Below, one piece after another: positions 297 to 19,170 of a stretch of 19,170 nucleotides of DNA. The stretch comes from Escherichia coli (GTDB taxonomy: Bacteria; Pseudomonadota; Gammaproteobacteria; Enterobacterales; Enterobacteriaceae): NCBI RefSeq assembly GCF_003334255.1, contig NZ_QOWU01000071.1. The stretch is one strand, 5' to 3'. Below the pieces are notes generated by a model. The model had not been told where the DNA came from. It did not search any database and saw nothing but the letters and a program-made list of their open reading frames with translations. The first letter of the stretch is position 1. Each line of letters opens with the position of its first letter. The translations under genes were made by a program, and so were the position numbers.

Positions 297-492
297 AATA
301 TCCGGGATATTGCAGGCAAATGTAGTCCATCTGCACCTTTGATGTGCAGTCCATCACCCGTTTAAACGCCTCCATGTAGTCATAACAGCCCTGCAATAAT
401 TGCGCGTCACCATCCTCAGTCAGAGGAAACCGGCTGGCGTAGTCATGAACTATTTTTGCCAGTTGTTGCTGCTCTGTGGTTAAGTCGATCAT
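292..492 (-). CDS. Hypothetical small protein (66 aa), translationally coupled downstream of tnpR
   Basis: ATGA start/stop overlap with tnpR (ATG at 492-490, tnpR stop at 491-489). Its stop codon lies inside the putative IS66 terminus, so the C-terminus may be altered. No family recognised. Confidence 0.45.
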   Translation of the reverse strand: MIDLTTEQQQLAKIVHDYASRFPLTEDGDAQLLQGCYDYMEAFKRVMDCTSKVQMDYICLQYPGYL

Positions 493-1064
493 TTTTGTCC
501 TCGTGAAAGCGTTCTATAAACTGTTGGCCGCGACACTGCGAACAGATCCGCCAGATCGCTGATCGAGTACTGGCCGGTTTCCCGCATGCGGCACAACTCT
601 TTTTGCTGCTTTTCAGACAGCTTAGGTTGTTTTCCCCGCAGTTTTCCCTTTGCCCGCGCAATCGCCATCCCTTCCCGGGTACGCAGACGTATCAGATCGC
701 CCTCAAACTCAGCAAAAGTGGCCAGCACATTGAAAAACATCTTCCCCACAGGGTCTGCTGGGTCGTAGAGACTGGTTCCCAGCGCCAGCTTCACACCCCT
801 GGCCTGTAGTGCATCCGCTATCTCACGTGCGTCAGGAACTGACCGCGCCAGACGGTCAAGCTTGGGAACAACCAGCGTGTCACCGCTGCGCACAGCGGCC
901 AGCGCCTGATCCAGTCCGGGCCGTTGCCGGTTTGAGCCGGTCAGCCCTTTATCAAGGTAAATCCGGTCCGGGGAGACGCCAAGTCTGACCAGCGTTTCCT
1001 GCTGTGCGGTTAAATCCTGTTTATCAGTAGAGCATCGGGCATACCCGATCCGTATTTCAGGCAT
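489..1064 (-). CDS. tnpR: Tn3-family serine recombinase (resolvase)
   Basis: 191 aa; N-terminal catalytic region IRIGYARCSTDKQDL, DRLARS motif, C-terminal helix-turn-helix (SISDLADLFAVSRPTVYR); divergent from tnpA as in Tn3-family transposons. Confidence 0.9.
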   Translation of the reverse strand: MPEIRIGYARCSTDKQDLTAQQETLVRLGVSPDRIYLDKGLTGSNRQRPGLDQALAAVRSGDTLVVPKLDRLARSVPDAREIADALQARGVKLALGTSLYDPADPVGKMFFNVLATFAEFEGDLIRLRTREGMAIARAKGKLRGKQPKLSEKQQKELCRMRETGQYSISDLADLFAVSRPTVYRTLSRGQK

Positions 1065-1212
1065 AAATGTGTACGTTTAAGGGGCCATGAAAGAGATTGA
1101 TACCGTACCAGTTATATGAGACAACGTCAGCAGTGATTTTCTCTGAAGCGCAAATTTAATTTTTACCGTCCGCAGAGCGATCCTCTTACGGACATGATTA
1201 ATCGGGGTCAGG
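1065..1212. promoter_or_regulatory. res-like region with divergent tnpR/tnpA promoters
   Basis: 148-bp intergenic region between divergent tnpR and tnpA containing inverted half-sites (GTCCG...CGGAC); position fits a resolution site. Subsites not mapped. Confidence 0.45.
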
Positions 1213-4200
1213 ATGACAACGCGTGGCAAAGCTACAGGCAAAAGTGAACGGCTGGCGGTTTTAAATAGCGCCGAGCAGGAGGCACTGTATGGTCTTCCTG
1301 ATTTCGATGATGCACAGCGACTGGAATTCCTGGCGCTGGAGGAATCAGAACTGGCGCTGGCCTGTAGTCGTCAGGGTCTTCACGCTCAAATTTATTGCAT
1401 CCTTCAGATCGCTTACTTTAAAGCCAAACACCTGTTTTTCCGCTTCGGATGGGGTGATGTTAAGGACGACAGTAACTTTGTGCTGAGCCGTTATTTTCAG
1501 GGTGAATCACTTCCGGAGCTGACTCTCACCAGGCACGAGCGCTATGCTCAACGCGAAAAAATCTGCTCACTGTACGGTTACCAACCGTGGTCATCTTCTC
1601 TGTCGCCACAGCTTGAACAGCAGGCAGCCAACATTGTTCACCGGGATGTAACCCCCGGCTTTGTTGCCACGGAGCTGATTATCTGGCTCAACGAACATAA
1701 AATTATCCGCCCCGGTTATACCACGCTTCAGGAGCTGGTAAGCCGGGTCCTTTCTGAAGAAAGGCAGCGTCTGGGACGTATACTGACGGAACAGCTTGAT
1801 GATGCAACTATTGCTGACCTGGGCAGACTGACTGAACGTGATGATACCCTTTCCCGGCTCGCAATCCTCAGGCAGGATGCGCGTGACTTTGGCTGGCGCC
1901 AGATGGTTCACGAACGGGAAAAGCGGGCTATCCTGGAGCCGCTGCACCATAAAGCCTGCGATATTTTGCCAGCACTGAATATTTCGCAGCAAAACCTGCT
2001 GTACTACGCCAGTCTGGCAAATTTCTATACCGTTTACGATCTCCGCAACCTGAAACCGGAGCAGACCCGCCTTTACCTGTTGTGTTATGCCTGGGTTCGC
2101 TATCGCCAGTTCAGTGACAACCTGGTGGATGCGATGTTTTTCCATATGAAACAGCTTGAGGATGAGAGCCGCAGCGTGGCCAGCCAACTCATGGCTGATA
2201 TGCAGGAAAAATACCGGCGCGAAACGTCTAAAATCGGGCGTCTGCTGTCGCTTTATGTTGATGACAGCGTTCCTGACCCCACCACCTTTGGTGAAGTCCG
2301 CCGCCGGGCCTGGAAAATAATGCCCAGGGAGACGCTGAAAACTACAGCACAACGTATGAGCGTGAAGCCCGTCAGCAGACTGGCGCTACAGTGGCAGGCC
2401 GTGGATGGCATGACGGCATTAATACGGCGTCACCTGCGACCATTATATCTTTCACTCGATCTCACCAGCGTGGTCCGGGACAGCCCGTGGGCAGAGGCGC
2501 TTAACTGGCTCAGAACGGTGTTCAGCAAAAAACAGACGCTTTTGCAGCGGCCACTTGAGGAGTGCCCGCAGGTAACGTTACCTGCGCGGCTGCGCCCGTA
2601 CCTGCTGGAATTCGGTGAGGATGGTGAGCCCACAGGCCTGAATGCCGGGCGTTATGAGTTCTGGCTCTATCGTCAGATAAGAAAGCGTTTTCAGGCGGGA
2701 GAATTCCACCTCAATAATAGCCTCCGGCACCGCCATCTTTCTGATGAACTGGTACCGGAAGGGGAACAGGCCACAGTGCTGGCTGAAATGAACATCCCGT
2801 TCCTGCAGAAGCCCATTAAAACACAGCTAAAAAAACTGGCATCCGAGCTGCACCGACAGTGGAAAGTGTTTAACCGTGAGCTGAAACAGGGGAAACTGAA
2901 ACATCTGGAATACGATAAAGAAACGCAGAAGCTGACCTGGCATAAATCGGTGGCCAGCCGTTATAAGTCGCAGAATAAGCGTTTTTATGAGCAACTGCCA
3001 TTCTGCGATGTGACCGACGTCTTCCGCTTTGTTAACGGGCAGTGTCGATTTCTTCCCGCCATGAAGCCGCTGCAACCCCGTTACGCCAAAAAAGAAGCTG
3101 ATGTAGACAGTCTGATGGCGGTCATCGTTGCCCAGGCGATGAACCATGGCAACCATGTGATGGCGCGAACCAGCGATATACCATTCCATGTGCTGGAGAC
3201 CACGTACGAACAGTACCTTCGTCTGGCGTCTCTGCTCACGGCCAATGACTGTATAACCGATGCTATAGAAGCGCTACCGGTTTTTCCGCTCTATTCGTTT
3301 GATCCGGAGACGCTTTATGGAGCTGTTGACGGGCAAAAATTTGGTGTTGAACGTCCGACAGTGAAAGCACGGTATTCACGTAAATATTTTGGTCGTGGTA
3401 AAGGCATGGTGGCCTACACGCTGCTGTGCAACCACATTCCAGTCAACGGATACCTGATTGGCACAAACGACTACGAAGGCCATCATGTATTTGACATCTG
3501 GTACCGCAATACCTCAGCAGTGAAACCCACGGCCATTACCGGTGACATGCACAGCATCAACAAAGCCAACTTTGCGATCCTGCACTGGTTTGGCCTTCGC
3601 TTTGAACCCCATTTTACTGGCCTTAACAAACAACTTCAGGAACTGTACTGCACCAGAGACACGTCAGCATATAAAAAATGCCTGATCCAGCCTGCCGGTC
3701 AGATTGACCTGGACCTTATCACCCGCGAAAAAAGTAATCTTAATCGCATCGTCGCTACGCTGGGGCTAAAAGAAATGACGCAGGGAACGCTGATCCGTAA
3801 GTTATGTACATATACTACGGCCAGCCCGACAAGACAGGCGGTATTTGAATACGATCGGCTGGTTCGCAGCATTTACACGCTGAAGTATCTGCGTGACCCG
3901 CAACTGGAACGCAATATCCGTCGTTCCCAGAACCGCATTGAATCTTATCACCAGCTGCGTGCAGCAGTCGCCAAAGTCGGCGGCAAGAAGGAGTTAACAG
4001 GGAAAAATGACATTGAAACGGACATCAGTAATCAGTGCGGACGGTTGATCTCCAACGCGATCGTTTATTACAACTCCGCGATCCTGTCACGGTTACTGGA
4101 ACGGCTGGAAGCCGAAGGTAACGAAAGGGGCATAGAGACTCTGACCCGGATATCGCCGGTGGCCTGGCAGCACATTTTGCTGAACGGGCATTATACATTT

Positions 4201-4260
4201 CAGAACACTAATGAAATTATTGACCTGGATGCTCTGGTTGTCGGACTAAAACTGGGGTAA
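1213..4260 (+). CDS. tnpA: Tn3-family DDE transposase
   Basis: 1015-aa ORF, the typical size for Tn3-family TnpA; stop codon lies inside the terminal inverted repeat as in Tn3. Confidence 0.92.
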   Translation: MTTRGKATGKSERLAVLNSAEQEALYGLPDFDDAQRLEFLALEESELALACSRQGLHAQIYCILQIAYFKAKHLFFRFGWGDVKDDSNFVLSRYFQGESLPELTLTRHERYAQREKICSLYGYQPWSSSLSPQLEQQAANIVHRDVTPGFVATELIIWLNEHKIIRPGYTTLQELVSRVLSEERQRLGRILTEQLDDATIADLGRLTERDDTLSRLAILRQDARDFGWRQMVHEREKRAILEPLHHKACDILPALNISQQNLLYYASLANFYTVYDLRNLKPEQTRLYLLCYAWVRYRQFSDNLVDAMFFHMKQLEDESRSVASQLMADMQEKYRRETSKIGRLLSLYVDDSVPDPTTFGEVRRRAWKIMPRETLKTTAQRMSVKPVSRLALQWQAVDGMTALIRRHLRPLYLSLDLTSVVRDSPWAEALNWLRTVFSKKQTLLQRPLEECPQVTLPARLRPYLLEFGEDGEPTGLNAGRYEFWLYRQIRKRFQAGEFHLNNSLRHRHLSDELVPEGEQATVLAEMNIPFLQKPIKTQLKKLASELHRQWKVFNRELKQGKLKHLEYDKETQKLTWHKSVASRYKSQNKRFYEQLPFCDVTDVFRFVNGQCRFLPAMKPLQPRYAKKEADVDSLMAVIVAQAMNHGNHVMARTSDIPFHVLETTYEQYLRLASLLTANDCITDAIEALPVFPLYSFDPETLYGAVDGQKFGVERPTVKARYSRKYFGRGKGMVAYTLLCNHIPVNGYLIGTNDYEGHHVFDIWYRNTSAVKPTAITGDMHSINKANFAILHWFGLRFEPHFTGLNKQLQELYCTRDTSAYKKCLIQPAGQIDLDLITREKSNLNRIVATLGLKEMTQGTLIRKLCTYTTASPTRQAVFEYDRLVRSIYTLKYLRDPQLERNIRRSQNRIESYHQLRAAVAKVGGKKELTGKNDIETDISNQCGRLISNAIVYYNSAILSRLLERLEAEGNERGIETLTRISPVAWQHILLNGHYTFQNTNEIIDLDALVVGLKLG

Positions 4261-6293: not shown

Positions 6294-6370
6294 AAGCTGT
6301 CGCTTATGGCGGGCACAGAATGCCGTGCGTTAATGCACTGCAAGGGGTTGAATCTCTGACACGGTTTCAT
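6281..6370 (-). CDS. Leader-peptide ORF (29 codons) overlapping the repA start (tap/repA6-like)
   Basis: ATG at 6370-6368; stop TGA at 6283-6281 lies 10 nt inside repA, as in IncFII translational coupling. Peptide sequence itself not recognised. Confidence 0.4.
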
Positions 6371-6456
6371 ATATACTTATCCCGTATTCTGTGAGGCCCC
6401 CACTATCTTTCTTGAGCCCGCCAAAGTTCATCGAAAGATAGTGGGGGTTTTCCTTT
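6365..6456 (+). ncRNA. CopA-like antisense RNA (5' end uncertain)
   Basis: Plus-strand hairpin with 15-bp stem CCCCCACTATCTTTC/GAAAGATAGTGGGGG (6396-6447) followed by TTTTCCTTT; antisense to the tap start/RBS region. Possible -35 TTGAAT (6348-6353) and -10 TATACT (6372-6377). Confidence 0.45.
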
Positions 6457-7764: not shown

Positions 7765-8280
7765 ATGACCATTCAATCCCCGGAAAACCCTGTCATTCAG
7801 TTACTGGAGAATATGCTTGAAGCGCTCTCCACCTCCCCGGACAGCATCAACAATGAACGACGTCGCCGGCGCTTCCTGCTGAACTGGCTTGATTCCGCCC
7901 GACAGATGAGTGAGTTCAGGGGGATGCCTGAAGAGTTCACCGCCCTGCGCAAACTGCTGGCCACCAATACGGACATACCGGTAGAGAACACGCTGAAATC
8001 ACTGCTGGAAAGTGGCCACAACGCAGCACTGTATGACCTGTACCGCTTCCGAGCAGCGCTTGCCACGTGCAGGAGTCTGGGATGGCAGATTGGCACGTGC
8101 GCATGGAATGACCAGTTACTGAGTGAGACACTTTCCCGCGCACAGACCGGGAAACGTCATATCCTGCAGCTGAACAGCACCGGGGACACCTTTTCCACCA
8201 CGGGCAGAATGATCAGACCGGTGGCATTTTCATTAATCCATCCGGCCACCATCAACACGTCTGAGGTTGAAGAGATATGA
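7765..8280 (+). CDS. Hypothetical soluble protein (171 aa)
   Basis: ATG at 7765 with AGGA 8 nt upstream; longer ORF from 7696 rejected because its start lies inside terminator T2. ATGA overlap with the next gene. Confidence 0.6.
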   Translation: MTIQSPENPVIQLLENMLEALSTSPDSINNERRRRRFLLNWLDSARQMSEFRGMPEEFTALRKLLATNTDIPVENTLKSLLESGHNAALYDLYRFRAALATCRSLGWQIGTCAWNDQLLSETLSRAQTGKRHILQLNSTGDTFSTTGRMIRPVAFSLIHPATINTSEVEEI

Positions 8281-8810
8281 CCGGCATTGGTAACTGGATA
8301 GTCAGCGTGCTGATTGGATATGCTGCTGGCCCCCTGTGGGCTGCCACCCACCTGGGAACAAGCCAGGACCGGGGAAGCCGGGCCGCTTACGGTTACATCT
8401 ACCTGATAGACAGCATGATCAGACCGCTGGTGATGGTATTCGGGTTCTTTTTTGCATCGGTCTCCATCGTGGCCGGCGGCACCATTCTGAATGCGTTGTT
8501 TGGCGCGGCTCTGGTTAATGTGCAGGCGGACTCCCTTACGGGGTTATTCAGCATCGCTGGATTTTTGCTGATTTATGCCCGAGTCTGTACCACGCTGGTT
8601 GCGGCCGTTTTTGCGCTTCAGGCTTATCTGCCTGACCATGTGATTAATTTTCTGGGCGGACGTGACGGCGTTAATATGCTGGGGAATATGGCATCTTCGG
8701 TCAAAGATATTATTGCTGGCGGAAATACCAATATGCGCAGAACACCTGGCGTACGTGAAGAAAAACTGAAAAATATTAAAGGAGATGATAAAGACGGAAT
8801 AAAACAATAA
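8277..8810 (+). CDS. Hypothetical integral membrane protein (177 aa)
   Basis: Several hydrophobic segments (IVSVLIGYAAGPLWAA, LVMVFGFFFASVSIVAGGTILNALFGAAL, LFSIAGFLLIYARVCTTLVAAVFAL), hydrophilic lysine-rich tail; coupled to upstream gene. Confidence 0.6.
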   Translation: MTGIGNWIVSVLIGYAAGPLWAATHLGTSQDRGSRAAYGYIYLIDSMIRPLVMVFGFFFASVSIVAGGTILNALFGAALVNVQADSLTGLFSIAGFLLIYARVCTTLVAAVFALQAYLPDHVINFLGGRDGVNMLGNMASSVKDIIAGGNTNMRRTPGVREEKLKNIKGDDKDGIKQ

Positions 8811-10206: not shown

Positions 10207-10488
10207 ATGCCATCTGCAACACAAACTGCCCGACTGGAAGCAAGAATCAGCACAGAACTGCATGCTATGCTGAAACGCGCTGCAGAAATCCAGGGACGCA
10301 CTATGACCGATTTTATCATTTCTGCCGTTCAGGATGCGGCACAACGCGCTATAGAACAAACCGATATCATCCGACTGTCCCGGACAGATCAGGAAATTTT
10401 TGCTCAGGCATTACTGTCACCAACAGAACCTAATGATGCGCTCAAACGGGCCTTTAAACGCCGTAATAATATTCTATACACAAAATAA
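10207..10488 (+). CDS. DUF1778-type (ribbon-helix-helix) antitoxin of a GNAT toxin
   Basis: 93 aa; AGGAGG RBS; ...LEARISTELHAMLKRAAEIQGRTMTDFIISAV... is typical of TacA/KacA-type antitoxins; immediately upstream of the GNAT gene. Confidence 0.85.
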   Translation: MPSATQTARLEARISTELHAMLKRAAEIQGRTMTDFIISAVQDAAQRAIEQTDIIRLSRTDQEIFAQALLSPTEPNDALKRAFKRRNNILYTK

Positions 10489-10493
10489 ATATA

Positions 10494-10982
10494 ATGTTTC
10501 AGCTGAAACCATTTAACAGCACATATGACAGAACCTCATTTTTATGTGGTTCTGATGCTCTGGACCGTTATATAAAAGAGCATGTCACACAGGATATTCG
10601 ACGACGCATCGCGGCCTGCTTTGTTGCTATAGATAACGATCATCGTATCATCGGATACTATACGTTATCAGCGGCCAGTATATTATTAACTGACTTACCT
10701 GAGCATTTGAGAAAAAAGCTACCACGATATCCTACCATCCCGGCTATTCGTATGGGACGCCTGGCAGTAAGTCTGTCATCAAAAGGAACAGGACTTGGTG
10801 GGACACTTTTAGCTGATGCGCTATATCGTGCATACACATCTGAAATTGCAGCATATGCGCTGATTGTTGATGCAAAAGATGACACGGCAGTCTCATTTTA
10901 CAAACATTATGGATTTATGACGCTCCCGGAGTCAGGGCGAACTTTATTCATGCCACTGGCATCATTATCTGCAATAGAATAA
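10494..10982 (+). CDS. GNAT-family acetyltransferase toxin (TacT/KacT/AtaT-type)
   Basis: 162 aa acetyltransferase fold (…RMGRLAVSLSSKGTGLGGTLLADAL…FYKHYGFM…), 5 bp after the antitoxin stop. Confidence 0.85.
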   Translation: MFQLKPFNSTYDRTSFLCGSDALDRYIKEHVTQDIRRRIAACFVAIDNDHRIIGYYTLSAASILLTDLPEHLRKKLPRYPTIPAIRMGRLAVSLSSKGTGLGGTLLADALYRAYTSEIAAYALIVDAKDDTAVSFYKHYGFMTLPESGRTLFMPLASLSAIE

Positions 10983-11553
10983 CCAGAATAAATCCGGGTA
11001 AAAAAGGGCGCATTGAGGTCAGCCTTCGCAACAATCCGGCGGCAGATTCCCTGCCGCCGTGTTGCCCGTTAACGTTTAACTTCGTAGGCTAACGTTGCCA
11101 CAAGCACCGTATTTCCCTGCTCGATACGAAATCCGCAAAGCGAATCCCTCACCATCCAGACAAAACACAGTATCGTCACACAGAGGACAATTAACATTGT
11201 TAAAAACGTTCGTTGTAGCATCGCAGCCCCTCCATTGCCTTTCGGCCGTTATCGGGCTACTATAATGTTGTCTAGGCATTACAGTAGAGCCCTGGGTTGA
11301 TTGATAAAAAAATCGCCTGGGGCTTCTGCTACATGCCGTCCACAAAACGCTTTCGGCATACAGCCTCAAGCGCCCGCAGCTATTCTAATCGTTTTTCAGT
11401 CTGCCACAATCGTTTTCCATCTAATGACATGTAATGCGCAACGGTATTTTTACGGGAAACAACACGGCAAGGATTCCCGGAACACGTCCATTATTTTATG
11501 GTTACGGACATCATGTTAAATCAGAAAGTAATAATGACCTGAAAGGAAATGGT

Positions 11554-11888: not shown

Positions 11889-13436
11889 TTATTTTTCTGA
11901 TTCAGCATTTCCGGTCAGTACAGGCTCTTCTGGCAAAGACATTACCGGAACGTCACGTTCGCCATTGAATACAGAAACACTTTCGGTGAAACCATTCTGT
12001 AACAAAGAAAAACTTAACGGCAGATTTTTGGTTTGTATCCCTGTGATCCATTGAAAAATCTCGGGAAAACGACGGGCGCTGATATGCACATGATTGAGGC
12101 GGTGCTCAGTAATATCACTTGCCATCATCATGAGAGGCACATCGTATCCCGAACGCAAACCTGGCGCATGATGCACAGGGGTGCTGTCTGAACTGACGGA
12201 TTGCCCATGATCAGAAAAATACAGCATGGCAAAATCATCGCCATGCTCTGTCGTCATGTTATAAATTGCCTGAAGAAACCGATCCAGCTTAAGCAATGTT
12301 GATAAATAACAGGATACTTTATTTCCGAATAATTCCCTGAACGGCTGTGCATCATTAAAAAGTCTGTCACAGGGATTAGGATGGGATCCCAGCATATGAA
12401 TGAAAATCACTTTTGGAGAAGACGAATTAACAGCTTCCCTGACATACTGAAGCATATCTTCATCATCAATGCGACGGGAAGAAGAGTTCCCTTCCTTAAG
12501 AAAATATTTCTTATCCGCACTGGCGGCGATGACAGAAATCAGCGTATCATGTCGCCCTAAAGAGCCCTGATTTGATATCCACCACGTTTCATATCCGGCT
12601 TTTCTGGCAAGCGTAACAATATTATTACCCGGATTACCTGTTTCAGTGTAATCAAGAGTCAGTGTTCTGCTGAGTGAACCTGTCGTATTCGGAGCAGCGG
12701 AGAAATACCCATTAATAAATATACCCGGAGCAGAGTTCAGCCATGGTGTTGTCGGCAAAGGATACCCATAAACAGAAAGATAATCCCGTCTGACACTTTC
12801 ACCAATTACGATAATTATAGTTTTATATTTCTTCTCCACACTCACAATATCCCATGAGTCTTTCTGATTGTTTTTCAGCGATTCATATCGCATCATTTCT
12901 TCTCTGGTTTCAGCTATCCCCGTTATTACATTCGTAACCATACGTTTTGGCCATGCATTTACTGACAATACGATAAAGAACAACAGAAAGATAAATCCCC
13001 GGTGGCTTTTTTCACGCTTACGCCAGAACCAGAATGTAAAAGCAGCAATGACCAGTGAAACAATAAAATAAAAAACAGGTATGCCTGTGATAAATTCACC
13101 TGCCTCATTTATATTTGTCTGCATTACAGACGCAATAAAACTGTTGTTTATTTTTCCGTAAATCATTCCAACCGGAGCATAGAATGCACTTAACAAAAGA
13201 AAGATACAGACACACGTCGCTGAAATAACATTCCGCCGCCCCAACGACATCATCAGGAACAATATAAGTACATTCCCTGTGGCGTTTTTCACTGTATATC
13301 CGCAGCACCATGTAACAAGTACAGAAAACAACAGATAAATCAGTGACTCTTTACACCACAACATAAAATAAAACTGTTTTGCCATCTCAAAAGCACATTT
13401 GGATTTTTCTTTAATACGAGACACGCCAGTCATTTT
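11889..13436 (-). CDS. Phosphoethanolamine-transferase-like membrane enzyme (sulfatase/alkaline-phosphatase superfamily, EptA/MCR/OpgE-like); start uncertain
   Basis: N-terminal hydrophobic helices followed by a catalytic domain with IIIVIGESVRRDYLSVYGYP, KVIFIHMLGSHPNP and AMLYFSDHGQS, resembling the VVGETARADHVSFNGY / MLHQMGNHGP / MLYVSDHGES blocks of MCR/EptA. AT-rich. ORF open to 13445 (TTG); first ATG at 13436. Confidence 0.75.
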   Translation of the reverse strand, partial: KMTGVSRIKEKSKCAFEMAKQFYFMLWCKESLIYLLFSVLVTWCCGYTVKNATGNVLILFLMMSLGRRNVISATCVCIFLLLSAFYAPVGMIYGKINNSFIASVMQTNINEAGEFITGIPVFYFIVSLVIAAFTFWFWRKREKSHRGFIFLLFFIVLSVNAWPKRMVTNVITGIAETREEMMRYESLKNNQKDSWDIVSVEKKYKTIIIVIGESVRRDYLSVYGYPLPTTPWLNSAPGIFINGYFSAAPNTTGSLSRTLTLDYTETGNPGNNIVTLARKAGYETWWISNQGSLGRHDTLISVIAASADKKYFLKEGNSSSRRIDDEDMLQYVREAVNSSSPKVIFIHMLGSHPNPCDRLFNDAQPFRELFGNKVSCYLSTLLKLDRFLQAIYNMTTEHGDDFAMLYFSDHGQSVSSDSTPVHHAPGLRSGYDVPLMMMASDITEHRLNHVHISARRFPEIFQWITGIQTKNLPLSFSLLQNGFTESVSVFNGERDVPVMSLPEEPVLTGNAESEK

Positions 13437-13591
13437 CCTGTACAAAAACAGACAATCATTTCAACGCATGGATATTTATATGAAACAGCTCACAAAAATA
13501 CCCTGCTCTGTCTAGCAAGATTACATATTATCAGGTTTTGTGTTTACAGCAACTGCTCCCCGGACCAGATTATTCGCATAACCCGATGAAT

Positions 13592-17028: not shown

Positions 17029-17176
17029 GGGTGAGAAACCCCTTGTATGGGAAAAACTTGCCATGCTCACTGCAGGTGCATTTTTGATACTGGCAATCCT
17101 GGGTGAGTAATCTTAATATCCTGTTTATTAAAGGGCAGAAGGCGGTGCCCCTCTGCCCTTAAGTACGTTTCCGGGA

Positions 17177-17287
17177 TTATCTGTCAACCAGTTCCCGGAT
17201 CAGCTCCAGGATAGCTATCACTGCATTGGCCACAGCAACAACAGCCCTGAGAACGATGATTAACAGGTTAATCATCCGCTTCTCCAT
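17177..17287 (-). CDS. Type I toxin-like small hydrophobic peptide, copy A (36 aa; 32 aa if started at second ATG)
   Basis: MEKRMINLLIIVLRAVVAVANAVIAILELIRELVDR; GGAG lies 7 nt upstream of the second ATG (17275). Copy B differs almost only at synonymous sites. Confidence 0.6.
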   Translation of the reverse strand: MEKRMINLLIIVLRAVVAVANAVIAILELIRELVDR

Positions 17288-17534
17288 CAATGGAGAAAGA
17301 ACGCCGTGGTTTGCCCTTACATTGCCTGTCGCCACGTTTTCTATAGTGTCAGTTATAGACAGTTCTTCTCCGGCCAGAGCACCAAAACCAGCACCACCTG
17401 ATGTTTTGGCCAGGACTTGCAATCTGTTCATCCCTGGAACGATATGCCGGAAAGAACGTACCTCAAGGCTGACACACCGAGTATATACTTATACGATGCT
17501 TGCAGAAATATTATTTCAGCCGTATTATTTCATA

Positions 17535-17621
17535 GTCAGTTATAGACAGTTATCTTCCGGTCAGGGCTACCAAGTTCGATCCGGAATCGTAAAAAAACCG
17601 GCCTCACCAGTCGGTTTTTTT
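17535..17621 (+). ncRNA. Candidate antitoxin small RNA, copy A
   Basis: Sigma70-like promoter TTGCAG-17 nt-TATTAT (17500-17528); intrinsic terminator ACCGGC-CTCACCA-GTCGGT plus seven T (17597-17621). 5' region 17535-17551 is a direct repeat of 17348-17364, hence complementary to the peptide mRNA leader. Confidence 0.4.
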
Positions 17622-17878
17622 ACATCTGTATATATCTGCTCCGGACTGCGCCCTGAGTCTCCCGTTGAAAATTGCCTTTTGAATTTTACGAAATACGGCA
17701 AATGGTGGATGGATGTCGAATATATTTCCAGGGGAGTTCCGGGGAAAAGCCGGCTCATGTTTGACTCACGGGAACAGACGCTGGAAGTGCAGAAAGATTT
17801 TCGATTTTTAACCTGAGCATATTTTGTTAAAGGGCAGAAGACGGTGACCCTCTGCCCTTAAGTACGTTTCCGGGATTA

Positions 17879-17986
17879 TCAGTCAACCAGTTCCCGGATC
17901 AGTTCCAGGAGAGCTATCACTGCGTTAGCCACAGCAACAACCGCCCTGAGAACGATGATTAACAGGTTAATCATCCGTTTCTCCAT
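17879..17986 (-). CDS. Type I toxin-like small hydrophobic peptide, copy B (35 aa)
   Basis: MEKRMINLLIIVLRAVVAVANAVIALLELIRELVD; versus copy A five synonymous changes, one I-to-L change and loss of the terminal Arg. Confidence 0.55.
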   Translation of the reverse strand: MEKRMINLLIIVLRAVVAVANAVIALLELIRELVD

Positions 17987-18279
17987 CAATGGAGGAAATC
18001 ACTGTTGTTTACTCTTACATTGCCTGTCACAACAGCTCTTTCATTGTTAGCTGAAAAGAGACTTCCTCCGGCCAGAGCACCAGACGCAGCACCACCTGTT
18101 TGTCTGGCCAGGTCTTTGAATAGCACAGATCCATAGTCCCGATGGATTGATGCGAAGGTAAGTCTCCAGACAAGGCTAACTTGCTGATTATACTTGTTTC
18201 AGGCGATATCGCTACTCCCGGAACAATAGACTGTAACGAACAGATTGCGATCAGGTGAATATAACGATATTCTGGTAAC

Positions 18280-18366
18280 GTTAGTTGAAAAGAGACTTCC
18301 TCCGGGCCAGAGCCACCAACTCTCCCTGGGATCGCAAAAAAGCCGGCCTCACCAGTCGGCTTTTTT
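18280..18366 (+). ncRNA. Candidate antitoxin small RNA, copy B
   Basis: Promoter-like TTGCGA-17 nt-TATTCT (18245-18273); terminator GCCGGC-CTCACCA-GTCGGC plus T-run (18341-18366). 18286-18305 is a direct repeat of 18052-18071 in the copy-B peptide leader. Confidence 0.35.
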
Positions 18367-18579
18367 GTGCCTGTCTCTCACCACCTTCTGCTGTTCCTGT
18401 GAAAATGCCCTGCTGAATTCATCCCTGCCCGGTCATTACCGGCGATTGTTCGTATTCATTCCACTCAGCCTCATCACGAAATTAATCCATTTATCTATGG
18501 AGGAATCCCCGTGTCTTACCAACAGACGTCTGCCAGTGAAGCACCAACAGAGATTTGGTATATCGTCGGTATCATATGC

Positions 18580-19170
<591 letters not shown>

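Follow-up and report, generated by a model that had tools for sequence, protein, structure and literature searches.

Probable tandem DqlB/AgrB type I toxin–antitoxin modules with different recognition sequences on an IncI-complex plasmid of Escherichia coli

Two tandem units with the layout of a type I toxin–antitoxin locus

We analyzed a 19,170-nt stretch of Escherichia coli DNA (contig NZ_QOWU01000071.1, assembly GCF_003334255.1; hereafter, the window), which contains, at positions 17124–18420, two direct-repeat units with a spacing of 699 bp. On the minus strand, each unit carries a G+C-rich terminator hairpin, a small open reading frame (ORF), a GGAG Shine–Dalgarno (SD) sequence within a short hairpin, and a long leader; on the plus strand, divergent from and upstream of the ORF, it carries a promoter-like element followed by an ~86-nt unit, a putative small RNA (sRNA), that ends in a hairpin and a T-run. 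We interpret the region, with a probability of roughly 0.9, as two complete, tandem DqlB/AgrB type I toxin–antitoxin modules located on an IncI-complex conjugative plasmid. Homology at the level of peptide, sRNA, and mRNA, complementarity and co-variation of sRNA and toxin leader, and conserved RNA helices are all observed at the locus. An earlier note on this DNA, prepared from the sequence without database searches, had described two tandem, diverged modules with the layout of a type I toxin–antitoxin locus, and both the repeat structure and the family matches detailed below bear this description out. Similarity between the two units is uneven: the segments comprising the ORF and the downstream hairpin (17124–17298 and 17823–17997) are 94% identical, the leader segments (17306–17423 and 18004–18121) are 72% identical, and beyond this segment of ~120 bp similarity drops, to rise again only at the sRNA terminators (90% identical). 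Sensitive blastn searches detected no third dqlB module in the window.

Several E. coli plasmids are 100% identical to the window over this region, including NZ_CP116070 (IncK2/Z), where the RefSeq record shows a pair of dqlB genes (32 and 31 codons) in precisely the same places; the annotation reads "dqlB: DinQ-like type I toxin DqlB (x2)". A homology search of peptide and unit against plasmid databases, which the earlier note had suggested, returned at least 5000 PLSDB records matching a single module, nearly all from conjugative Enterobacterales plasmids, and more than 2352 plasmid records, mostly conjugative, matching the pair.

The putative toxin genes dqlB-1 and dqlB-2

The coding sequences of dqlB-1 (17177–17275, minus strand) and dqlB-2 (17879–17974, minus strand) specify hydrophobic putative toxins of 32 aa (MINLLIIVLRAVVAVANAVIAILELIRELVDR; WP_001681653.1 on the identical plasmid) and 31 aa (MINLLIIVLRAVVAVANAVIALLELIRELVD; WP_001363141.1), respectively. 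Both match the NCBIfam model NF041473 (DqlB), with 65.4 bits for copy 1 and 63.0 bits for copy 2 (cut-off, 35); in both, the alignment starts at an internal methionine and spans profile positions 1–31 of 31. Besides the DqlB and DinQ models, no NCBIfam model matched the window peptides. The earlier note recognized no named family in the peptide, which is in fact a member of DqlB, named in 2016 and annotated by RefSeq; its impression of a DinQ-type resemblance was sound, the "DinQ-like" model being matched well above its cut-off. DqlB peptides are hydrophobic, single-helix peptides of ~31 aa with a charged C-terminus (..LELIR..), and the grand average of hydropathy (GRAVY) of the two window peptides is 1.72 and 1.89.

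The two copies differ in 5 of the 31 shared codons, with four synonymous changes and one Ile/Leu replacement, and the stop codon of copy 1 has been shifted (TGA to AGA, then TAA), with the gain of one Arg. The ORF is preserved in homologous loci, as the earlier proposal would have it: its position, together with SD and start codon, is kept in 16 of 18 automatically parsed homologues, and the remaining two, one of which is a RefSeq-annotated dqlB, carry a GGGA variant of the SD that was missed by the GGAG parse pattern. The dqlB ORF is thus under purifying selection.

The earlier note had described a 36-codon hydrophobic ORF on the minus strand with an internal GGAG–ATG. Both elements exist: the 36-codon ORFs extend over 17177–17287 and 17879–17989, and each contains an internal GGAG-N6-ATG start (SD at 17282–17285 and ATG at 17273–17275 in module 1; SD at 17981–17984 and ATG at 17972–17974 in module 2). 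The product, however, most likely starts at the internal ATG and comprises 32 aa in module 1 and 31 aa in module 2, because this codon aligns with the GTG start of DinQ, demonstrated experimentally (PMC3567139), and because the upstream in-frame ATG (17285–17287 in module 1) overlaps the SD inside the sequestering hairpin and has an out-of-frame counterpart in dinQ.

Two longer ORFs were considered and are probably not genes. The 84-aa ORF at 17177–17431 (minus strand), an in-frame fusion of leader and dqlB in module 1, lies in the structured 5' untranslated region (UTR), and the RefSeq "hypothetical protein" WP_001346191.1 (48 aa, 18027–18173, minus strand) falls wholly within the structured dqlB-2 leader; the frame of neither is conserved between the modules or in dinQ.

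A structured toxin mRNA homologous to dinQ

The dqlB-1 mRNA probably spans ~17470 to 17125 (~345 nt), rather than 17177–17430 as originally suggested. Its predicted promoter (17470–17485, minus strand) has a −10 element TATACT at 17480–17485 and a start at ~17470, and that of dqlB-2 (18177–18192, minus strand) has TATAAT at 18187–18192 and a start at ~18177; both were placed by alignment with the dinQ promoter. Downstream, the dqlB-1 transcript would end at an intrinsic terminator hairpin (17131–17160, minus strand; RNAfold, −22.4 kcal/mol) followed by UUUAAUAAA, and the dqlB-2 transcript at its equivalent (17830–17859, minus strand; −18.5 kcal/mol), which likewise shows covariation; compensatory changes in the dqlB-1 terminator stem occur across 15 homologues (alignment columns 344–374). 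The SD lies within the hairpin UCUCCAUUGAUGGAGA in module 1 (17282–17296, minus strand; inverted repeat I2) and within a sequestering hairpin in module 2 (17981–17995, minus strand), as read from the sequence, its inverted repeat, and conservation. In the full-length RNAs, the predicted probability that the SD is unpaired is 0.00 for module 1 and 0.20 for module 2.

The window mRNA can be aligned over its full length with dinQ of E. coli and with 12 further homologues. The 15-sequence alignment comprises the two window modules, dinQ, and loci from IncI1, IncI-gamma/K, IncX1, IncX3, IncX4, IncHI2, and IncFIB plasmids as well as from Serratia, Citrobacter, and Pantoea, and 23 of the 53 pairs of its consensus structure are supported by compensatory changes. 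The covarying helices are two leader stem-loops resembling SL2 and SL4 of dinQ, the SD hairpin (alignment columns 196–212), and the terminator, in agreement with the covariation of SL2 and SL4 already reported by Kristiansen et al. (PMC5066626).

Divergent AgrB-like sRNAs

Matches to the Rfam family AgrB (RF02891) cover the full model length on the plus strand at 17536–17623 and 18281–18368. Putative sRNA-1 (~86 nt, 17536–17621) scores 43.5 bits over model positions 1–84, and putative sRNA-2 (~86 nt, 18281–18366) scores 41.0 bits, the gathering score being 40. The predicted fold of sRNA-1 comprises a single-stranded 5' recognition region, an internal stem-loop, and a terminator hairpin (17590–17621), and the assignment of sRNA-2 is likewise supported by its fold; the ends at 17621 and 18366 agree with those proposed earlier. 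The plus-strand promoter-like elements with a 17-nt spacer are also upheld: TTGCAG (17500–17505) and TATTAT (17523–17528) precede sRNA-1 (promoter, 17500–17528), and TTGCGA (18245–18250) and TATTCT (18268–18273) precede sRNA-2 (promoter, 18245–18273). The same geometry, namely a −35 element, a 17-nt spacer of variable sequence, a −10 element, and a gap of 7 nt before position 1 of the Rfam model, is shared by 20 AgrB-like genes. The predicted sRNA start lies ~65–105 bp upstream of the toxin transcription start, in divergent orientation.

Promoters and terminators were assigned by homology-anchored alignment and explicit folding, which replaced a generic scan. That scan had called the sRNA terminators on the minus strand only, probably due to A/T runs absorbed into the stem. 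The earlier note, on the other hand, took them to be specific for the plus strand. The asymmetry to which it pointed is real, since a G:U pair on the plus strand corresponds to an A–C mismatch on the minus strand, but the predicted energies of the plus and minus strands (−13.6 versus −11.2 and −17.4 versus −15.2 kcal/mol) differ by only ~2.3 kcal/mol and runs of A and T lie on either side, so that in these models the terminators are formally bidirectional and only mildly strand-biased.

The Rfam model misses part of the AgrB family: dqlB loci of IncL/M (L026) and IncN (L028 and L029) plasmids and the locus L027 have no Rfam AgrB match at E ≤ 1, yet still possess a direct repeat of the toxin leader of at least 14 nt, located ~180–190 nt upstream.

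Cognate pairing and recognition types

Each sRNA shares a repeat with the leader of its own toxin, as the earlier note had seen. The predicted target of sRNA-1 in the dqlB-1 5' UTR (17349–17381, minus strand; direct repeat D3) lies ~75–105 nt upstream of the start codon, and that of sRNA-2 in the dqlB-2 5' UTR is at 18047–18079 (minus strand; direct repeat D5). In module 1, 16/16 nt are complementary, followed by two mismatches and three G:U pairs within 31 nt, and in module 2, 24/24 nt are paired (one G:U), followed by a one-base bulge. Shared repeats of this length far exceed chance expectation for a 19-kb window.

To compare cognate and non-cognate pairs, duplex energies were computed on the 5' 42 nt of the sRNA, as RNAduplex runs on the whole sRNA gave over-long, uninformative duplexes. 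The cognate energies are −55.7 kcal/mol (sRNA-1 with mRNA-1) and −65.5 kcal/mol (sRNA-2 with mRNA-2), whereas the non-cognate ones are −41.0 kcal/mol (sRNA-1 with mRNA-2) and −40.0 kcal/mol (sRNA-2 with mRNA-1). The chromosomal system provides a calibration: AgrB, which protects against DinQ, yields −65.5 kcal/mol with dinQ, and AgrA, which does not protect, yields −50.0 kcal/mol (PMC3567139 for both phenotypes). As the non-cognate window duplexes are weaker than that of the non-protecting AgrA, we predict that neither module would protect against the toxin of the other.

The pattern extends to other replicons. We examined 19 sRNA/target pairs from plasmids and chromosomes, which fall into 12 recognition types, and used one representative of each. 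The homologues were sampled from PLSDB plasmids; a scan of genome contigs with the pattern CTCCGGCCAGAGCAN{8,11}GCACCACC gave only 14 loci, mostly Escherichia dinQ together with two chance matches in Kitasatospora, and thus insufficient diversity. The variable ~20 nt at the 5' end of each sRNA match its own toxin leader, with co-variation across the 12 types: the first 20 nt are paired with the own leader at 229 of 240 positions, whereas non-cognate combinations average 14.4 of 20, and the cognate total was reached in none of 100,000 permutations. Targets were taken as the best upstream match, which slightly favors the cognates; they are, however, homologous sites whose distance is constant (180–235 nt).

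Relationship to known systems

The DqlB/AgrB system is already known: it has a name and an annotation, and experiments on close relatives have validated it. In 2016, Kristiansen et al. defined the dql (dinQ-like) genes dqlA and dqlB, which they identified on both chromosomes and plasmids of Enterobacteriaceae through 5' UTR similarity and signature residues (PMC5066626). In 2025, DqlB of pOXA-48 was shown to be a toxic peptide that is neutralized by agrB and causes killing on plasmid loss; the agrB region of this plasmid tolerates no transposon insertions, agrB alone rescues the killing, and dqlB is present in 83% of IncB/O/K/Z and 67% of IncI1 plasmids (PMC12365149). In the same year, the IncX3 agrB-dqlB locus of pOXA-484 was found to be toxic without agrB and to stabilize a test plasmid (PMC12317039). 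The window modules share with the pOXA-48 (IncL) and pOXA-484 (IncX3) loci the NF041473 family (25 of 31 residues are identical to the IncL/M-type and to the IncX3-type peptides), a divergent, trans-acting sRNA that shares its 5' sequence with a segment of the toxin 5' UTR ~180–235 nt away, and the location on a conjugative enterobacterial plasmid. They differ in their tandem arrangement with unlike recognition sequences, and the window sRNAs match the Rfam AgrB model, from which those of IncL/M and IncN plasmids have diverged too far.

Comparison with the chromosomal dinQ-agrA-agrB locus, taken from the E. coli gor–arsR interval, reveals an mRNA that is homologous end to end, including the terminator, ORF position, SD hairpin, SL2- and SL4-like stems, and the core CUCCGGCCAGAGC, with AAGUCCUGG, CAGGUGGUGC, and GUGACAGGCA as further common elements. 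The sRNAs are homologous as well (Rfam AgrB), and both loci have the divergent orientation and a tandem repeat of the sRNA gene. Several features set them apart. DinQ is a 27-aa peptide with a GTG start, and its profile NF041472 scores the window peptides at 18.4 and 21.5 bits, below the cut-off of 30; the dinQ promoter carries LexA operators, which the window modules lack; and the chromosome combines one toxin with two sRNAs, of which one is degenerate, in contrast to the plasmid-borne window locus with its two toxins and a matched sRNA for each.

The gene order had been likened to that of tisB/istR, zorO/orzO, shoB/ohsC, and dinQ/agrB. The last of these is homologous, but the resemblance to the other three is architectural only: the window has no Rfam match to the OrzO, IstR, or OhsC families at gathering, and related loci produce only sub-threshold OrzO-P matches (31–35 bits versus 60), mostly confined to the terminator portion. 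The hok/sok system of plasmid R1, which also occurs in the window, is likewise a plasmid type I addiction module with a small membrane toxin, a structured, translationally inert mRNA, and an unstable antisense RNA; however, Sok is cis-encoded and overlaps the hok leader, Hok measures ~50 aa and is translationally coupled to mok, and there is no sequence homology to DqlB/AgrB.

A proposed addiction mechanism and its alternatives

By analogy with these relatives, the toxicity of the peptides, rescue by the sRNA, involvement of RNase III, mRNA processing, and post-segregational killing would apply to the window modules as well. Each module would produce a minus-strand mRNA of ~345 nt whose long, structured 5' UTR hides the SD in a hairpin and which encodes DqlB, a single-helix membrane peptide of 31–32 aa. 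The first ~31 nt of the sRNA would pair with the toxin leader, keeping the SD sequestered and exposing the duplex to RNase III, as proposed in analogy to dinQ/agrB, and no toxin would be made while the plasmid is present. The primary dinQ transcript is translationally inert and is activated by 5' processing to the +44 form. After loss of the plasmid, the sRNA would no longer be replenished, and leftover mRNA could then be translated into a toxin that kills or arrests the plasmid-free cell. Given their different recognition sequences, the two modules would most likely act as independent, non-cross-protecting locks. DqlB/AgrB ranks among the most widespread addiction systems of conjugative resistance plasmids of Enterobacterales, with a tiny gene that is easily missed, and the locus would account for part of the stability of this plasmid without being new in kind.

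Several observations weigh against this interpretation. The Rfam AgrB scores barely exceed the gathering score; the sRNA promoters reach only 7–8 of 12 consensus positions, the toxin promoters are weak by the same standard, and the generic scan missed both. In silico 5' truncation opened the SD only in module 2 (0.70) and not in module 1; the same folding also misses the known dinQ switch. With its two mismatches and three G:U pairs, sRNA-1 is a less perfect antitoxin than sRNA-2, the common 13–15-nt core CUCCGGCCAGAGC makes some cross-talk between the modules possible, and the presumed expression and toxicity of both modules are carried over from relatives.

Chromosomal dinQ carries a LexA operator, TACTGTATGATTATCCAGTT, over its −10 element, and the window modules might analogously be SOS-induced stress toxins under LexA control rather than constitutive addiction modules. 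The sole CTG-N10-CAG motifs, at 17398–17413 and 18096–18111, occur in both modules, and a similar site near dqlB on plasmid pTF2 has been scored as a weak candidate SOS box (heterology index, 11.64; PMC12211044). Yet the window motifs lie ~70 nt inside the transcribed 5' UTR, within structure-conserved RNA elements (CCUGG / CAGGUGGUG), and we judge them unlikely LexA sites; the toxin promoter intervals contain no CTG-N10-CAG or relaxed variant, the best 20-mer there having 8/20 mismatches and no CTG/CAG pair. In addition, DqlB was undetected in the proteome analysis of pTF2 (PMC12211044), and the plasmid relatives act as addiction modules (PMC12365149 and PMC12317039). LexA control of the window modules is therefore unlikely and SOS induction has little in its favor; lacking the operator of chromosomal dinQ, the toxins are probably transcribed constitutively, which would suit an addiction role. 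An even more improbable view is that the peptides are small membrane modulators of conjugation or recombination. DinQ has been reported to modulate conjugal recombination and nucleoid compaction (PMC3567139), the tandem adjoins trbA in related IncK2/Z plasmids, and the IncL/M locus adjoins trbC, but the killing, rescue, and plasmid-loss experiments on DqlB relatives (PMC12365149 and PMC12317039) favor addiction, as do the neighboring maintenance functions, hok/sok and the DUF1778/GNAT pair.

The remaining alternatives concern the presence of two copies. The modules could be redundant and cross-regulating, with each sRNA repressing both mRNAs through the core CUCCGGCCAGAGC and the duplication merely raising dosage: the coding regions are 94% identical, and non-cognate pairs contain uninterrupted runs of up to 15 paired bases and reach −40 to −41 kcal/mol. 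We consider this unlikely, as strict co-variation links the variable 5' ~20 nt to the cognate leader in the 12 types, AgrA fails to counteract DinQ toxicity (PMC3567139) despite a stronger predicted duplex (−50.0 kcal/mol) with 25/31 complementary positions, and both recognition types occur singly in other IncI plasmids (L022 and L017). Decay of one copy into a nonfunctional duplicate is more doubtful still; module 1 would be the likeliest candidate, with its less perfect sRNA pairing and shifted stop codon. However, ORF, SD hairpin, promoters, terminators, and sRNA are retained in both copies, the changes between the ORFs are mostly synonymous, a 32-aa peptide with a final R is also encoded by L019 (NZ_AP022088), and at least 231 plasmids preserve the tandem pair, some of them only 93.7% identical (L030).

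Mosaic history of the modules

Independent locks are also compatible with how the modules are distributed. In other IncI-type plasmids, the recognition types of the window occur singly and elsewhere, in the interval from a HEAT-repeat gene to hok: type 1 in L022 (NZ_CP023382) and type 2 in L017 (CP074320). Across plasmids, the 5' UTR and sRNA are grouped according to recognition type: module 1 is 97–100% identical to L022 over the SL2 segment and the target segment, and module 2 reaches 91% identity to L017 in the latter. In contrast, the ORF and terminator group by location, with 94% identity between modules 1 and 2 and 99–100% between L017 and L022. These groupings indicate, at the sequence level, that the regulatory and coding halves differ in history, with the break between them close to the SD and start codon, and the mosaic would fit an exchange of regulatory cassettes or, alternatively, gene conversion affecting the ORFs. 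We tentatively suggest, at somewhat less than even odds, that the tandem modules are orthogonal specificity alleles and that the regulatory half (5' UTR and sRNA) forms an exchangeable cassette evolving and recombining independently of the ORF.

An orphan AgrB-like sRNA of the window module-2 type, without a cognate toxin, is found on L019 (1256–1343) beside a complete dqlB module of another type, a layout identical to that of chromosomal dinQ-agrA-agrB; it could serve as an anti-addiction element. If the two modules are orthogonal locks, stacking them would defeat competitors equipped with a single antitoxin, and orphan sRNAs, such as that of L019 or the toxin-less second sRNA gene of the chromosomal agrA/agrB pair, would represent anti-addiction immunity genes. 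The diversification of recognition sequences, the mosaic, and the orphan sRNA are not described in the dinQ/dqlB literature cited here; these observations are modest and remain within a known system, but co-varying specificity types and cassette exchange, if confirmed, would bear on plasmid–plasmid competition and on anti-plasmid strategies based on antitoxin RNAs.

Plasmid context

The window represents the replication and maintenance region of an IncI-complex (IncK2/Z-like) plasmid. It encodes a Tn3-family resolvase and transposase (489–4260), RepA/RepZ with the PK-repZ pseudoknot (6306–6455), a C-terminal TraY/DotA fragment (8277–8810) upstream of excA, ExcA itself, a DUF1778/GNAT-like pair (10207–10982), sok of hok/sok (11219–11375; Rfam sok, 116 bits), and a thermonuclease. 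A 518-aa ORF (11889–13445, minus strand) displays weak similarity to phosphoethanolamine transferases (CptA/EptA, 81–101 bits; MCR-4/5, 26–27 bits); its assignment to MCR was rejected on these scores, all of which fall far short of the family cut-offs.

Immediately downstream of module 2 lies an IS3-family transposase fragment (18623–19069). A related IncK2/Z plasmid carries the same tandem pair just upstream of trbA, the place of which is occupied by the IS3-family fragment in the window; together with the Tn3-family genes and the TraY/DotA fragment, it forms a set of mobile-element scars. Two further maintenance modules, the DUF1778/GNAT-like pair and hok/sok, lie within 8 kb. The interval between the HEAT-repeat gene and hok, which harbors the single dqlB module of L017 and L022, is occupied by the DUF1778/GNAT pair in the plasmid identical to the window (L001), suggesting that it is a hot spot for addiction modules.

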